Made by a program: the position numbers and the translations under genes
Virus record (IMG/VR): IMGVR_UViG_2700989510_000019
DNA length: 4,355 bases
DNA from: a virus
Lineage: Duplodnaviria > Heunggongvirae > Uroviricota > Caudoviricetes
Direction: 5' to 3' (one strand)
The notes under the pieces: generated by a model
Seen by the model: only the letters and a program-made list of their open reading frames with translations
The model's database searches: none
What the model was told of the DNA's origin: nothing
Shown here: positions 581-4,355 of the stretch, piece after piece
How positions within the stretch are numbered: position 1 is the stretch's first letter
Layout of the letters: each line of letters starts with the position of its first letter

Positions 581-713
581 AATGTTCCTCTCAATTGGTA
601 TTATTAGTCGCAGTGATAGGATATTGCACAGCTATTGCGCGATATCATCAGAACGCTGTTTGTTACCCTGTAACCAGCAAGCTCAGTCTGTTAACGGAAT
701 TAATGAGGGTTTT
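581..713 (+). promoter_or_regulatory. Intergenic region upstream of sodC: presumptive sodC promoter and 5' UTR; also carries the J ribosome-binding site on the minus strand
   Basis: 134-bp non-coding gap between the J start (580, minus) and sodC start (714, plus). SD GAGGG at 705-709, 4 nt before the ATG. Weak sigma70-like candidates only, e.g. -10-like TATCAT at 643-648 and TATTAT at 599-604, neither with a convincing -35. Perfect 5-3-5 palindrome GTTACcctGTAAC at 662-674. Exact promoter elements cannot be assigned from sequence alone. Confidence 0.3.
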
Positions 714-1241
714 ATGAAATGTAAAATCATTGCTGCCATTGCCATGCTGACAGCAGCATCATGCGGATACGCAGCAGAACAGGAAGTCCCAATGAACCTT
801 GTCAGTGCTGACGGAAAAGAAGTCAGCATTGGAAAAATAACCATTCAGGAGACCCCCTACGGTCTGCTGTTCACACCAGCCCTTCACTCTCTGTCTGAAG
901 GCATTCATGGTTTTCATGTGCACGAAAAAGGAAATTGCGCCCCGGCACTGAAAGACGGAAAACCGGTCGCAGCATTATCGGCTGGCGGTCACTTTGACCC
1001 GAAAAACACCGGCAAACATCTTGGCCCCTGGTCTCCGGATGGACACCTGGGCGACCTCCCTGCGCTGTTCGTGACGCATGACGGAAAAGCGAACTACCCG
1101 GTCCTGGCCCCGAGACTGAACTCATTAAAAGAGATTAAAGGGCGTTCTCTCATGCTTCATGCTGGCGGTGATAACCATCATGACCATCCGGAGCCCCTGG
1201 GCGGTGGTGGTGCGAGAATGGCCTGCGGCATCATTCAATAA
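714..1241 (+). CDS. sodC: Periplasmic copper/zinc superoxide dismutase (SodC family) with N-terminal Sec signal peptide, 175 aa
   Basis: ATG at 714 with SD GAGGG at 705-709; TAA stop at 1239-1241. Translation [55 protein letters not shown]...[12 protein letters not shown]...[30 protein letters not shown]...[30 protein letters not shown]. Carries the Cu,Zn-SOD signature: Cu-ligand HxH (GFHVHE), bridging His in GGHFDP, Zn-ligand block KHLGP...DGHLGDLP, Cu-ligand His in LHAGGDN, and the LGGGG-AR-xACG C-terminal motif with the disulfide Cys pair (GNCAP / MACG). Collinear with E. coli SodC and Salmonella SodCI as recalled. The part of track ORF 207..1241 upstream of 714 is antisense to J and the intergenic region and is not part of the gene. 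Confidence 0.95.
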
Positions 1242-1247
1242 TCAGTC

Positions 1248-1276
1248 AGGTAAGGGGCGGGCCCCTTACCTTTATT
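1248..1276 (+). terminator. Rho-independent terminator immediately after the sodC stop codon
   Basis: Perfect inverted repeat GGTAAGGGGC (1249-1258) / GCCCCTTACC (1261-1270), a GC-rich stem of 9-10 bp, followed by TTTATT (1271-1276). No U-tract on the minus-strand side, so plus-strand specific. Confidence 0.6.
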
Positions 1277-1388
1277 CCTCAGGACGATAAATCCTTTCTC
1301 CCTGAAAAGAACGGCACATCCTCCCTCTCTGAGTTAATGTTTTTGTCGTGACATAAGAATAATTCCTTACACTCAATCTTCGTAACGC

Positions 1389-1421
1389 TCCCGCAGTTCC
1401 GCAACTCTGCGGGATTTTTTT
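1389..1421 (+). terminator. Second (tandem) rho-independent terminator downstream of sodC, abutting the 3' end of gene I
   Basis: Stem TCCCGCAG (1389-1396) / CTGCGGGA (1407-1414), 8 bp perfect with a 10-nt loop, followed by TTTTTTT (1415-1421) then ATTCTTTTT. On the minus strand the hairpin is preceded by an A-run and not followed by a U-run, so read-through of the minus-strand late transcript is expected. Confidence 0.65.
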
Positions 1422-1428
1422 ATTCTTT

Positions 1429-2109
1429 TTACCCCTGCCGCCCGATAACCACCACCTTCCCGTCACCGCCTTCATCACGGGTACTGATGTCCTGGGAGAT
1501 TCGCCGTGAGCCAACCAGCATTTCACCGTAAGGCACCGGCATCGGGTTCCCCTGAGCAATCATGTTATCCAGCGACGAAAAGTACGTGTTCTGTTTACCG
1601 TTATCCGTTGCCCTGTATTCCGGTGTTTTTGGCTTCGGGGCCAGCATCTGTGCCACACCACCCAGTATCATGCTGGCACCCAGTGAAAACAGCATCGTGG
1701 TGGCAGAAAAACCGCCGGCACTCAGCGCTGCACCCCAGGCTGCCATCGATGCTCCGGCCGTGAAGAAAGAGCCCACGATGGCTGCCGCCCCCAGCACAAT
1801 CTGCAGTCCGCCCTTTCCGGCTCCGGCCAGTCGCGGCACAATATGGATGACCGCCCCCTCACCCAGAGGTTCGTGAAGACGGGCGTACACCGCCTCCGGT
1901 GCCGTGTCCTCACCGCGAATACGTATCTGGTACCAGCCTTCGTTCATCTGACGGCGGAATCCCGGCACCTGTAACGACAGCGCCCGGATGGCTTCCGCTG
2001 CCGTGTTCACGTACAGGCTGAGGCGGCGGCCAAATCGTTGCAAATCCCCGTGAAGGCAGATGCGTGCCAGTGGCGGTGGCGCCAGACAGAATGCGTTCGT
2101 CGTTGCCAT
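1429..2109 (-). CDS. I: Tail tip assembly protein I (lambda gpI homolog), 226 aa
   Basis: ATG at 2109..2107, TAA stop at 1431..1429. Translation MATTNAFCLAPPPLARICLHGDLQRFGRRLSLYVNTAAEAIRALSLQVPGFRRQ...GAVIHIVPRLAGAGKGG...GAAAIVGSFFTAGASMAAWGAALSAGG...FSLGASMILGGVAQMLAPKPKTPEYRATDNGKQNTYFSSLDNMIAQGN...YGEMLVGSRRISQDISTRDEGGDGKVVVIGRQG, collinear with lambda gpI as recalled (ARICLYGDLQRFGRR..., DNGKQNTYFSSLDNM...). Sits directly downstream of K in lambda order. Confidence 0.9.
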   Translation of the reverse strand: MATTNAFCLAPPPLARICLHGDLQRFGRRLSLYVNTAAEAIRALSLQVPGFRRQMNEGWYQIRIRGEDTAPEAVYARLHEPLGEGAVIHIVPRLAGAGKGGLQIVLGAAAIVGSFFTAGASMAAWGAALSAGGFSATTMLFSLGASMILGGVAQMLAPKPKTPEYRATDNGKQNTYFSSLDNMIAQGNPMPVPYGEMLVGSRRISQDISTRDEGGDGKVVVIGRQG

Positions 2110-2750
2110 TTTTCGGAATACCTCTCCCGTTTACTCAGTTGTTCAGGCAGATGGTGAAGCAGTTCACCGTTGCCGCAGTAAATGGCGGCATGATTGGCCA
2201 CCGATGCGCCAAAGCAGCACAGCAGGATATCGCCCGCCTGTGCAGAGGACAGGGGCACCCGGTAAAAGCCTGTGACCGCCATATTGTCCAGGTAAAGGTT
2301 CTGACCGTTGCGCCACCAGTCATCCTCACGCTCAAAATCCGGCATATCAATTCCCGCCAGATGGTATGCATCCCGGAACAGCGTGTAACAGTCCGTCACC
2401 CCGTGCTCAAAGCGCCGTCCTGTCAGATGTGGCACACAGCGGAATTTATGAATGTCCCCCCGGCAGACCAGCCACCAGGACAGTGCACTTTTTATCTGCA
2501 GCCGCCGGTCGGCCTCGCTCAGCCAGGGCAGACCACCGGGATGACTGTGGACCAGTGCCACAATCTCCCCCTGCATCTCTGCCCGCAGCCAGTCTTCCGG
2601 TGCAATACGAAAATACGCCTCCGGCTCTGCAGAGATATTCACACAAGGGATATACCGCTCCCCCTCCGGCGTTCTCACCACGAAGCCGCACGACTCCGCA
2701 GGCGCACACCGCCGGGCATGCGCCAGAATCGCTGATTCTGTCTGTGTCAT
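2007..2750 (-). CDS. K: Tail tip assembly protein K (lambda gpK homolog), two-domain JAB/MPN-type metallopeptidase plus NlpC/P60-type cysteine peptidase, 247 aa
   Basis: ATG at 2750..2748 (complement of cat at 2748-2750). Translation MTQTESAILAHARRCAPAESCGFVVRTPEGERYIPCVNISAEPEAYF...IVALVHSHPGGLPWLSEADRR...WWLVCRG...RRFEHGVTDCYTLFRDAYHLAGIDMPDF...GDILLCCFGASVANHAAIYCGNGELLHHLPEQLSKRERY... Contains a perfect JAMM motif HxHx7Sx2D (HSHPGGLPWLSEAD) and a downstream Cys/His pair (DCYTLF ... NHAAIY) typical of NlpC/P60. Overlaps the start of I by 103 nt in a different frame. Confidence 0.9.
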   Translation of the reverse strand: MTQTESAILAHARRCAPAESCGFVVRTPEGERYIPCVNISAEPEAYFRIAPEDWLRAEMQGEIVALVHSHPGGLPWLSEADRRLQIKSALSWWLVCRGDIHKFRCVPHLTGRRFEHGVTDCYTLFRDAYHLAGIDMPDFEREDDWWRNGQNLYLDNMAVTGFYRVPLSSAQAGDILLCCFGASVANHAAIYCGNGELLHHLPEQLSKRERYSEKWQRRTHSVWRHRHWHASAFTGICNDLAAASACT

Positions 2751-2755
2751 TGGAT

Positions 2756-3454
2756 TTACTGCGAAAGTTTGTTAATGGAAAGGAAACCGCCAAAATTAGC
2801 CACCATGCCGCGCATCTCACACCCGCGCATGCACTTGCTGCATCTGTCCTTACGGATATCGGTGGTGGGTTTATCGAACTCATCCGCCACAGCCCCGCCC
2901 GTGTAACCACACTCATCAGAGCGGTAGGTCCACATACAGGTGTTCGCCAGCATGATGCGACCGGGAAACAGCGCCCCGTCCGTCTCGGTCGGTGTGGCCA
3001 GCACAAACGAGGCCGTCATGGCCGTCAGCGATGACATCTGCTCCACCACCCACCGGTCAGTCAGCTCCTGCTCCGGGTCGGCCTCCGGATTGCCTGCCAC
3101 AAAGTTCACCGCATCCAGAAAACGCGCATACACCCGGCGGCGGACCACCGTGGCACCCACCAGGCTCTGCAAATCCTCCGCCATCCCGGTGACAAGACCG
3201 AACAGATTGGACACCGTCAGCGACGGGCGGGCACTGCTGCCCTTTCCGTTCATCTCAAAGCCACTGCCCTCAATCGGGTACGCCTGATATTGCCGCCCCT
3301 GCCAGGTCACCGGCTCCCTTTTTTCATTCAGCTCATTGCAGAAAAAATACCGCTCACCGCCCTGCACCGTCAGGTCGATTTCCCAGAGCACCACCCGCGG
3401 TGACTGCTCTGACTTAACCGACTCGTTCAGGCTTTCTTCGTGAATATCCTGCAT
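2756..3454 (-). CDS. L: Tail tip assembly protein L (lambda gpL homolog) with C-terminal cysteine cluster, 232 aa
   Basis: Start assigned to ATG at 3454..3452 (MQDIHEESLNESVKSEQSPRVVLWEIDLTVQGGERYFFCNELNEKREPVTWQGRQYQAYPIEGSGF...), matching the recalled lambda gpL N-terminus (MQDIRQETLNE...VVLWEIDLT...GGERYFFCNE). The track's longer ORF to 3481 starts with TTG and adds 9 residues with no homolog support. SD-like GGTGG sits ~8 nt upstream. TAA stop at 2758..2756. C-terminus ...MLANTCMWTYRSDECGYTGG...DRCSKCMRGCEMRG...FGGFLSINKLSQ. Confidence 0.9.
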   Translation of the reverse strand: MQDIHEESLNESVKSEQSPRVVLWEIDLTVQGGERYFFCNELNEKREPVTWQGRQYQAYPIEGSGFEMNGKGSSARPSLTVSNLFGLVTGMAEDLQSLVGATVVRRRVYARFLDAVNFVAGNPEADPEQELTDRWVVEQMSSLTAMTASFVLATPTETDGALFPGRIMLANTCMWTYRSDECGYTGGAVADEFDKPTTDIRKDRCSKCMRGCEMRGMVANFGGFLSINKLSQ

Positions 3455-3795
3455 CAGTTCACCACCTGCTCTATCGTGCAACTGAAATCACTGTACCGGG
3501 CATTATCCGTGACACTCCACTCACGGCACACAACCCTCACCGTCCGGTTATGTTTCGGCGGTCGCCACAAAAAGGCACGGTAACCACCATGCCACGATAA
3601 AAACTCTTCCAGCCAGCGCCGGGTTGACTCATCCGTCACCCGGAACACCGCCTGAAACGTCTTCAGTTGAGGATTCAGCCCTGTGGGGCGGCGCTGTTCA
3701 TAACCGTCACCAAACCGCACCCTCACCACCGACGGCTTCTCACTCACCTGCATCCCTTCACGCGGGACCAGATGCAGCGTTTTTATCTCAGCCAC
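3454..3795 (-). CDS. M: Tail tip protein M (lambda gpM homolog), 113 aa, GTG start
   Basis: Translation (M)AEIKTLHLVPREGMQVSEKPSVVRVRFGDGYEQRRPTGLNPQLKT...FLWRPP...EQVVN, collinear with lambda gpM as recalled (...KVRFGDGY...FLWTPP...EQVVN). The start codon is GTG at 3795..3793 (complement of cac), preceded by GGAGG (complement of 3804-3808) with an 8-nt spacer. The only in-frame ATG is 14 codons downstream and would truncate the conserved N-terminus. TGA stop at 3456..3454 overlaps the L start. Confidence 0.85.
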   Translation of the reverse strand: MAEIKTLHLVPREGMQVSEKPSVVRVRFGDGYEQRRPTGLNPQLKTFQAVFRVTDESTRRWLEEFLSWHGGYRAFLWRPPKHNRTVRVVCREWSVTDNARYSDFSCTIEQVVN

Positions 3796-4355
3796 TCAGC
3801 ATTCCTCCGTCACGTCGCATGGACAGCATCACCGCCTGCACCCGCTGGTCAATCAGCTGCACAAGACTGCCTGCCGCCTCCGGCCCTATCTGGCCATTAG
3901 TCCCGTCATTCTGAATGGCGATATGGTAGACCGGGGAATACACCAGACCCGCACTGCCGTTCATACTACCCACCGCGCGCACACCCAGCGAGCCATCCGC
4001 CGCCCGCGTCAGAGGCATAATGGCTTCAGGTCCGGCCTCCCCCATCAGCCCGGCCCCTTTTGCAAAGGCAAAGTACGTGGGCGTATCCACAATACTGTTG
4101 CTGTACGCACTCAGGTTTGCCGAGGTATACACGCCGCCTTTTGCATTGGCCACCGCTCCGCCCAGCCAGTCACCAATGCTGCCGAGAAATCCTCCCGCAC
4201 CGGACATACCGTTTGCCGCCGTCTTAATTCCGTTGACAATCGCGGCATTCATAAGAACTTTTGATATTTCCTGCAGCACTGATGAGGCCCAGCTGCGCCA
4301 TTCCACTTTATTTCCGTTCAGCATCTCCGTGATGTTATTCACCATCCCTGAGATA
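3788..4355 (-). CDS. H: Tail tape measure protein H (lambda gpH homolog), C-terminal ~188 aa only; the 5' end lies beyond the window end
   Basis: The minus-strand frame is open from position 4354 to the TGA stop at 3790..3788; the ATG at 4345 reported by the track is internal. Translation ...ISGMVNNITEMLNGNKVEWRSWASSVLQEISKVLMNAAIVNGIKTAANGMSGAGGFLGSIGDWLGGAVANAKGG...GSMNGSAGLVYSPVYHIAIQNDGTNGQIGPEAAGSLVQLIDQRVQAVMLSMRRDGGMLSG, a Gly/Ala-rich C-terminal region typical of lambdoid tape-measure proteins. Position immediately upstream of M fits lambda order. Confidence 0.85.
   Translation of the reverse strand, partial: ISGMVNNITEMLNGNKVEWRSWASSVLQEISKVLMNAAIVNGIKTAANGMSGAGGFLGSIGDWLGGAVANAKGGVYTSANLSAYSNSIVDTPTYFAFAKGAGLMGEAGPEAIMPLTRAADGSLGVRAVGSMNGSAGLVYSPVYHIAIQNDGTNGQIGPEAAGSLVQLIDQRVQAVMLSMRRDGGMLSG

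Follow-up and report, generated by a model that had tools for sequence, protein, structure and literature searches.

The closest described relatives of the locus are sodC-F1 and sodC-F2 of the EDL933 prophages CP-933R and CP-933V, whose function and expression have been established experimentally (D'Orazio et al. 2008, PMC2569942). SodC-F is dimeric, has about three times the activity of chromosomal SodC (19,380 U/mg for purified SodC-F1) and is also more stable. It is made in log phase and anaerobically, independently of rpoS, and mutants show raised sensitivity to H2O2. The protein is found in both the soluble periplasmic and the detergent-phase (membrane) fractions, and its lipid modification was shown. 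For a lacZ fusion, a 299-bp fragment from upstream of sodC-F was taken as its promoter, with expression results given as data not shown (PMC2569942). By comparison, the chromosomal E. coli SodC is monomeric and rpoS-dependent, is made only in aerobic stationary phase and is not lipid-associated (PMC2569942). SodCI of Gifsy-2 (STM1044), which has an established role in virulence (work cited in PMC2569942), is a dimeric-type prophage superoxide dismutase (SOD) encoded opposite to the tail operon. SodCIII of Fels-1 (STM0924, Salmonella Typhimurium LT2) is encoded between homologues of gpI and gpJ, on the opposite strand.

The second type of system that bears on the locus is a small RNA (sRNA). 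PasB is an 83-nt RNA from prophage PP6 of EPEC E2348/69 (NC_011601.1, 1466343–1466261, − strand; PMC8550237, Table S6), with a stability reported to depend on Hfq (PMC8550237, Fig. 3A; Pearl Mizrahi et al. 2021) and a published Northern probe, AATCCCGCAGTGATCGCGGAGCT (PMC8550237). EcOnc22 (Sp15), EcOnc23 (Sp14) and EcOnc24 (Sp11) are mutually homologous candidates from strain Sakai (PMC4104026, Tree et al. 2014). EcOnc22 measures ~85 nt by Northern blotting and is destabilised without hfq (PMC4104026). We take the Hfq dependence and size of these RNAs from those studies. The table of Tree et al. flags no Rho-independent terminator for EcOnc22–24 (PMC4104026).

The window, by which we mean the whole analysed stretch of 4,355 nt (IMG/VR record IMGVR_UViG_2700989510_000019), is a lambdoid tail module with the 3′ end of H, then M, L, K, I and the 5′ end of J on the − strand, as assigned with Pfam (Table 1). 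Matching genomes annotate J as host specificity protein J. Gene I of relatives has a later start in RefSeq and is 582 nt long. Between the stop codon of I (1429–1431) and the ATG of J lie 848 bp (581–1428). A first-pass annotation, which put this distance at about 850 bp, was right on that point; it was also right that I and J are closely spaced in lambda, where the gap is 60 bp, and that an intact sodC lies on the strand opposite to the late tail operon. It had treated the gap as one self-contained sodC insertion. We consider it very likely that the gap is instead a composite of a sodC cassette (581 to ~1310) and the remnant of a PasB/EcOnc22 sRNA gene (~1326–1421).

Table 1. Features of the window, in order of position
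Feature	Position	Strand	Basis or detail
J 5′ part (tail tip/host specificity), first 193 codons	2..580	−	Pfam FNIII-A_GpJ, 2.6e-34; ATG 580–578
Upstream region of sodC	581..713	+	Sequence; GC 0.41; Shine-Dalgarno GAGGG at 705–709
J Shine-Dalgarno, GAGAGGAA	585..592	−	Read from sequence; within sodC-specific DNA
sodC (SodC-F allele with L112), 175 aa including a putative signal peptide	714..1241	+	Pfam Sod_Cu, 3.9e-32
T1, intrinsic terminator of sodC	1248..1277	+	Stem 1248–1271, 10 bp, GC-rich; weak U-tract UUUAUU
Post-T1 spacer	1278..1325	+	~50 bp deleted relative to the cM8a allele, junction ~1310/1311
Probable promoterless remnant of a PasB/EcOnc22-family Hfq-binding sRNA gene, body and terminator	1326..1421	+	Homology
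T2, intrinsic terminator of the sRNA	1389..1421	+	Stem 1389–1396/1407–1414, 10-nt loop, T7 at 1415–1421
I, tail assembly	1429..2109	−	Pfam Lambda_tail_I, 3.8e-15
K	2007–2750	−	Pfam Prok-JAB and NLPC_P60
L	2756–3454	−	Pfam Phage_tail_L
M	3454–3795	−	Pfam Phage_min_tail
H (tape measure), 3′ end	3788–4345...	−	Pfam Tape_meas_lam_C

The sodC gene and its product

The identity of the gene and its metal ligands were established directly. The predicted protein scores 111.9 bits on Sod_Cu (PF00080; cut-off 28.9) and covers positions 3–133 of the 133 in the profile. Bacterial Cu,Zn SOD chains in the PDB match it at ~1e-62; chromosomal E. coli SodC, which is of the same family and has the same ligands, matches at 1.4e-56 (PDB 1eso). 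The protein was aligned with human SOD1, SodCI, SodCIII and a second E. coli allele. The Cu ligands (H68, H70, H93 and H149) and the Zn ligands (H93, H102, H111 and D114) fall in invariant columns, as do the active-site R168 and C171 of the C-terminal disulfide; C75, the partner of C171, is at the bacterial position. Ligand assignments followed human SOD1 (Cu H46, H48, H63 and H120; Zn H63, H71, H80 and D83; Arg143; disulfide Cys). At the N-terminus, n, h and c regions can be recognised by eye together with a lipobox, AASC, at residues 14–17; an alternative SPase I site follows residue 20 (before AEQ). The lipobox is consistent with the membrane association reported for SodC-F.

In E. coli O157:H7 Sakai, ECs_1989 of prophage Sp10 has the amino-acid sequence of the window protein (100% identity), and the Sp4 copy, ECs_1120, differs from it at one residue (L112P). 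Exactly the same protein, named SodC, occurs on more than 1000 contigs of a public collection. The gene is an already known one, a member of the SodC-F1/SodC-F2 pair (D'Orazio et al. 2008, PMC2569942), which we place in Sp4 and Sp10 of Sakai. Those copies share with the window the I–J slot, the orientation, the upstream region and T1; the window differs from them in carrying a rarer loop variant of T2 and another mosaic of flanking tail genes. SodCI is 59% identical to the window protein and SodCIII 60%, with a signal peptide that has no lipobox Cys. These comparisons agree with the first-pass annotation, which had classed the gene with Gifsy-2 sodCI, Fels-1 sodCIII and the O157:H7 prophage sodC and had credited it with a Shine-Dalgarno sequence, which is found, and a signal peptide, which can be recognised by eye. 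Its description of sodC as the highest-value cargo of the window was overstated, the gene having been characterised since 2008.

Upstream of sodC, two alleles with 81% identity elsewhere agree at every position of a 32-nt block (632–663), which makes this block a candidate promoter/operator. A consensus scan for sigma-70 promoters found none in 500–1500, and inspection by eye for PhoP-box, FNR and CRP-like sites gave nothing convincing. Downstream, T1 folds with −17.9 kcal/mol (z −2.4). The scan for terminator-like hairpins on the + strand returned four, against 1.1 expected in shuffles, and two of these are in the I–J gap.

The I–J spacer with and without sodC

Location and distribution of the cassette were likewise read directly from genomes. 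Of the 5,426 complete E. coli genomes searched, 547 contain a match to the cassette (581–1310, 730 bp); there are 723 such places in total, and in 542 records the identity is 99% or more. For the flanking tail genes, identity to the best relatives is 93–100%, a combination compatible with the recent spread of a cassette among mosaic prophages. The I–sodC–J arrangement is present in Sakai Sp4 and Sp10, in two complete Stx2a phage genomes and in 13 of the 77 IMG/VR lambdoid loci with a gpI at least 91% identical. The other 64 loci are sodC-free, and sodC is absent from phage BP-4795 and from Stx1a and Stx2c phages. When genome contigs were scanned with SodC, the relatives among the matches listed were at most 69% identical (Serratia, Pseudomonas and others) and had no phage context; the scan is uninformative on the origin of the cassette.

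The first-pass annotation had called sodC a moron, and several features of the cassette fit that term. Its base composition differs from that of the flanks (GC 0.41 in the upstream region, 0.53 in the coding sequence and 0.50 in the cassette, versus 0.586 in the flanking tail genes). It has a terminator of its own in T1, T2 not being part of the sodC unit. It lies between genes that are adjacent in relatives and is absent from close relatives, although the slot in those relatives is not empty. The I–J spacer is ~246 bp in BP-4795 and the Stx1a and Stx2c phages. Among the sodC-free IMG/VR loci it measures 234–260 bp in 48, 340–343 bp in 12, 421–425 bp in three and 715 bp in one. In this phage lineage the junction was not a tight one, contrary to what had been supposed. 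The earlier annotation had also held that its boundaries would be wrong if close sodC-free relatives had the same ~850-bp spacer with unrelated content; their spacers are shorter, but the slot is occupied, mostly by ~240 bp with an sRNA gene, and the boundaries had to be revised.

Common to all 64 sodC-free spacers is a small unit on the + strand of the window, antisense to the tail genes. On its promoter side it has a conserved box, CTGAAnnTCTTCACA, followed by TTCACA, 16 nt and a TATAAT-like element. The body of ~90 nt contains the core AACTCCTTAACnTTAATCTTC, and a terminator of the form CCCGCAG-loop-CTGCGGGATTTTTTT adjoins the I stop codon. The unit is in tandem at four loci, with two copies in the 421–425-bp spacers and three in the 715-bp spacer. 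On the other side of the slot, sodC-free relatives have a − strand hairpin with a T-run before J that is gone from the window, and their sequence differs from that of the window right up to the J ATG. Fels-1 also has a − strand hairpin adjoining J; its sodCIII is followed by no PasB-like remnant, and only 53 bp separate the sodCIII stop from the I stop. The Gifsy-2 slot is a different one, with sodCI between a lom homologue/M and L and not between I and J.

Probable identity of the sRNA unit and of its proposed remnant in the window

From its sequence and position we identify the unit in the I–J slot as, in all likelihood, PasB of EPEC and EcOnc22/23/24 of EHEC. The reverse complement of the PasB probe corresponds to the terminator loop of the I–J units. 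In the NC_011601 record, PasB lies between I (ending at 1466255) and gpJ (starting at 1466496), antisense to both. The published 5′ end of PasB is ~15 nt downstream of the start predicted from the TATAAT box. The peaks of EcOnc22, EcOnc23 and EcOnc24 fall in the J-to-I intervals of Sp15, Sp14 and Sp11, and the same intervals correspond to top-ranked Hfq-bound intergenic regions: ECs2161-2162 in Sp11, ECs2942-2945 in Sp15 and ECs2718-2721 in Sp14. In Sp15, J is split into two ORFs. Reads for these candidates and regions are mainly in the column that would represent the + strand, opposite to the tail genes.

EcOnc22 coordinates refer to an older version of the Sakai sequence. With AgvB and AsxR as landmarks the shift is about +137 to +140 at 1.27 and 1.94 Mb, and at 2.2–2.9 Mb it was deduced; once it is applied, the EcOnc22 peak would sit on the body of the unit beside I. 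Taken together, these landmarks and the logic of convergent sRNA pairs at EcOnc06 support a shift of +128 to +140. As a gauge of the shift at 2.9 Mb, homology among EcOnc42, EcOnc08 and EcOnc21 was ambiguous.

AgvB, AsxR, PasA, PasC and PasD were considered as the identity of the sRNA and rejected; they lie near Q/holin-lysis genes and not in the tail operon. Rfam searches (E up to 1) with the window and two sodC-free loci with an intact unit gave no match, which indicates that the family is not in Rfam, and a full-text literature search for strings of the sRNA sequence returned only chance 11-mer matches. Of 5,426 complete E. coli genomes, 1,794 contain sequence related by blastn to the Sp15 unit (3,799 places in all), and no match among those listed overlaps an annotated feature. 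We conclude that the I–J junction of this large family of lambdoid prophages in E. coli is a small "anti-late" transcription slot that normally holds a PasB/EcOnc22 gene.

The homology of the window to PasB was established directly. PasB aligns with 1326–1421 over its full body and terminator, in the same position beside the I stop codon and on the same strand, antisense to the tail genes. EcOnc22/23/24 correspond in the same way. Unlike them, the window copy has no conserved upstream box, −35 or −10. Alignment with the cM8a allele places the box and the −35 in the ~50-bp deletion (Table 1), and the equivalent of the −10 (1318–1324) reads ATCCTCC, which is not TATAAT-like. Since the unit's own promoter (box, −35 and TATAAT-like −10) is absent from the window copy, we class that copy as a remnant and not as a gene.

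What remains of the unit is well preserved. T2 has an 8-bp stem (−14.4 kcal/mol, z −3.2), and its end is 8 nt away from the stop codon of I. Its 7-bp core stem is invariant in 18 variants of the sRNA, save for one closing pair; RNAalifold on these 18 variants gave only the invariant terminator stem, with no covariation support for further structure. The loop of T2 in the window is the rarer variant, with full-length matches in 102 genomes.

Boundaries, expression and the fate of the remnant

The boundaries of the cassette follow from direct comparison. DNA specific to sodC begins immediately beside the J ATG, so the Shine-Dalgarno sequence of J belongs to the cassette. At the other end, strain cM8a is informative: it has a divergent sodC allele (81% nucleotide identity), in which the T1 stem is conserved and the loop is different, and the order is J, sodC, T1, a complete sRNA gene and I. 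We infer the order of events from these alignments. sodC with T1 (581 to ~1310) would have replaced part of the resident spacer, from the base beside the J ATG (J Shine-Dalgarno included) to just upstream of the sRNA body, and would not have entered by clean insertion. The resident PasB/EcOnc22 gene probably lost its promoter when sodC arrived, or afterwards. The proposal of a moron inserted between I and J is thus upheld as regards cargo on the opposite strand and revised as regards the event, a replacement in an occupied slot and not an insertion into an empty junction.

Two other readings of the gap were weighed against the composite. In the first, sodC would have entered an otherwise tight junction as a single self-contained insertion that spans all 848 bp and has both terminators as its own. 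This agrees with the 60-bp gap of lambda and with the position of both hairpins downstream of sodC on the sodC strand. We nevertheless regard it as very improbable. T2 and the preceding ~95 nt also occur in relatives that have no sodC, among them Stx1a_1602, which shares ~1326–1428 with the window almost base for base. A constant linkage of 1326–1421 to sodC is contradicted by these occurrences, and T2 thus falls outside the sodC unit; of the two terminators first assigned to sodC, both are present as hairpins on its strand and the second belongs to the sRNA gene. A query with 1311–1428 finds 993 matching places versus 723 for the sodC cassette. No spacer shorter than 234 bp occurs among the 64 closest relatives without sodC (gpI identity of 91% or more), and in cM8a sodC with T1 and the sRNA gene are separate neighbours. 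The second reading, in which sodC is inactive or in decay in the manner of SOD-like proteins that have no metal ligands, would have in its favour the general commonness of decayed prophage genes. Against this, the reading frame is intact, every ligand is retained, the identical sequence occurs on more than 1000 contigs, and the near-identical SodC-F1 was purified with an activity of 19,380 U/mg (PMC2569942). We rejected a decayed sodC on the ligand check and the published activity, and give it practically no weight.

The composite reading suggests how the locus may work. We infer a sodC promoter within the ~299 bp upstream of the ATG; transcription from it would run against the late tail operon, and the lysogen would thereby express sodC without need of late transcription. 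T1 would stop most sodC transcription, and T2 would at most catch what reads through, before it runs antisense into I. The T-runs of T1 and T2 are on the + strand only, and late transcription towards J should not be blocked by them. It would in any case be Q-antiterminated, as is established for lambda. SodC-F would be exported, partly as a lipid-anchored dimer, and would dismutate periplasmic superoxide; the SOD activity, dimeric state, lipidation and expression pattern are those published (PMC2569942). Expression without the late genes, which the first-pass annotation had proposed, agrees with the published detection of the protein in uninduced lysogens (PMC2569942).

The remnant at 1326–1421, having no promoter, is presumably silent. 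The weak U-tract of T1 (UUUAUU) makes read-through into it possible, so it may not be silent, and the remnant could still function as an Hfq-binding sRNA derived from the 3′ UTR, released by T1 read-through and processing and coupled to sodC expression. The PasB-equivalent body, conserved core and strong terminator are kept almost unchanged, and the remnant is maintained beside a cassette that is itself found at 723 places. On the other side, the I–sodC intervals of Sp4 and Sp10 contain no reported Hfq-CRAC sRNA candidate or top-ranked intergenic region, and retention may just reflect recent arrival, the cassette being at least 99% identical everywhere. We consider a functional remnant unlikely, and favor a silent one beside a working sodC. 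With similarly low confidence, we suggest that sodC took over a PasB-family sRNA, the level of which would follow that of sodC, or that gain of sodC silences PasB.

The composite spacer is a modest point of annotation and evolution and does not represent a new kind of system. sodC is already on record as a fitness factor carried by EHEC prophages, and there is nothing new in the gene itself. The PasB/EcOnc22 gene is unannotated in the genome records listed, yet related sequence is present in about one-third of complete E. coli genomes. Surveys of prophage cargo or of PasB should count the sodC-linked copies as promoterless remnants. If sodC does silence PasB, the difference between sodC-positive and sodC-negative prophages would extend beyond SOD to their sRNA output.

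The antisense sRNA gene of the I-J spacer

Lambdoid prophages that lack sodC have a conserved sRNA gene in the spacer between the gene I stop and the J start codon, oriented antisense to the tail operon. It is present at the four loci listed in the table and in 64 further IMG/VR loci (among comparison loci L009-L088), and it was identified as PasB of EPEC prophage PP6, which is EcOnc22/23/24 of EHEC Sakai (Tree et al., 2014; PMC4104026). Related sequence was found in 1,794 of 5,426 complete E. coli genomes, at 3,799 places; among the matches listed, none overlaps an annotated feature, and Rfam holds no model for the PasB/EcOnc22 family. When the sRNA candidates in Table S2 of Tree et al. (2014) are mapped to the current Sakai annotation, an offset correction is needed: relative to NC_002695.2, the EcOnc coordinates (NC_002695.1) are displaced by about +137 to +140 nt at 1.27-1.94 Mb.

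Four loci carry tandem repeats of the PasB-like unit, each comprising box, promoter, body, and terminator, in two or three copies directly downstream of the gpI match. The spacers measure 421-425 bp in three of these (L066, L080, and L083) and 715 bp in the fourth (L071). The upstream box and the terminator stem are conserved among the tandem units and the bodies have diverged. The repeated units constitute a small sRNA gene array within the tail operon.

Elements flanking J and sodC

Relatives that lack sodC encode a strong hairpin followed by a T-run on the tail-gene strand, ~40 nt before the J ATG; this hairpin is missing from the window. Its variants carry compensatory stem changes (ACAGGCAtCC/GGaTGCCTGT versus ACAGGCAcCC/GGgTGCCTGT), and it looks like a terminator within the late operon, immediately ahead of J. 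Spacers of 340-343 bp (L029, L031, L039, L048, L054, L070, and others) have a different J-proximal segment of ~190 bp, which replaces that of the ~240-bp spacers. Within this segment, a hairpin, AAACCCCGGTATC...GATACCGGGGTTT, is accompanied by T-runs on each strand; the segment may be a further small cargo unit in the I-J slot.

Upstream of sodC in the window, a 32-nt block, CTATTGCGCGATATCATCAGAACGCTGTTTGT, is 100% conserved between the two sodC alleles; the DNA around it shows only ~70% identity. The block matches no recognisable consensus and is a candidate promoter/operator.

Coordinates of features in the window and in comparison loci
Feature	Locus	Position	Strand
I-J spacer with sRNA gene, sodC-free	L003	1081-1326	
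I-J spacer with sRNA gene, sodC-free	L004	1081-1326	
I-J spacer with sRNA gene, sodC-free	L169	3192-3431	
I-J spacer with sRNA gene, sodC-free	L179	1457-1696	
J-proximal hairpin/T-run	L003	1132-1155	-
J-proximal hairpin/T-run	L004	1122-1145	-
J-proximal hairpin/T-run	L169	3243-3266	-
J-proximal hairpin/T-run	L007 (Fels-1)	about 3867-3890	
Conserved block	window	632-663	
Longest I ORF	window	1429-2109	-
K	window	2007-2750	-
Longest L ORF	window	2756-3481	-
Extra genes between L and K	L008 (cM8a prophage)	6222-8247	

Tail gene boundaries and cargo between L and K

At its longest, the I ORF shares 103 nt with K, and I and K likewise overlap in lambda. RefSeq annotation of relatives uses a later ATG for I, giving 582 nt and a 4-nt overlap with K. 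The longest L ORF starts with TTG at 3481 and exceeds the annotated L (699 nt, ATG at 3454). Extra genes occupy the L-K slot of the E. coli cM8a prophage, the one with the divergent sodC allele; their annotated products are a P22AR C-terminal domain protein, a YlcI/YnfO family protein, an Arc-family repressor, and a ClpP-like protease subunit. These genes are another cargo insertion within the tail-tip gene cluster.
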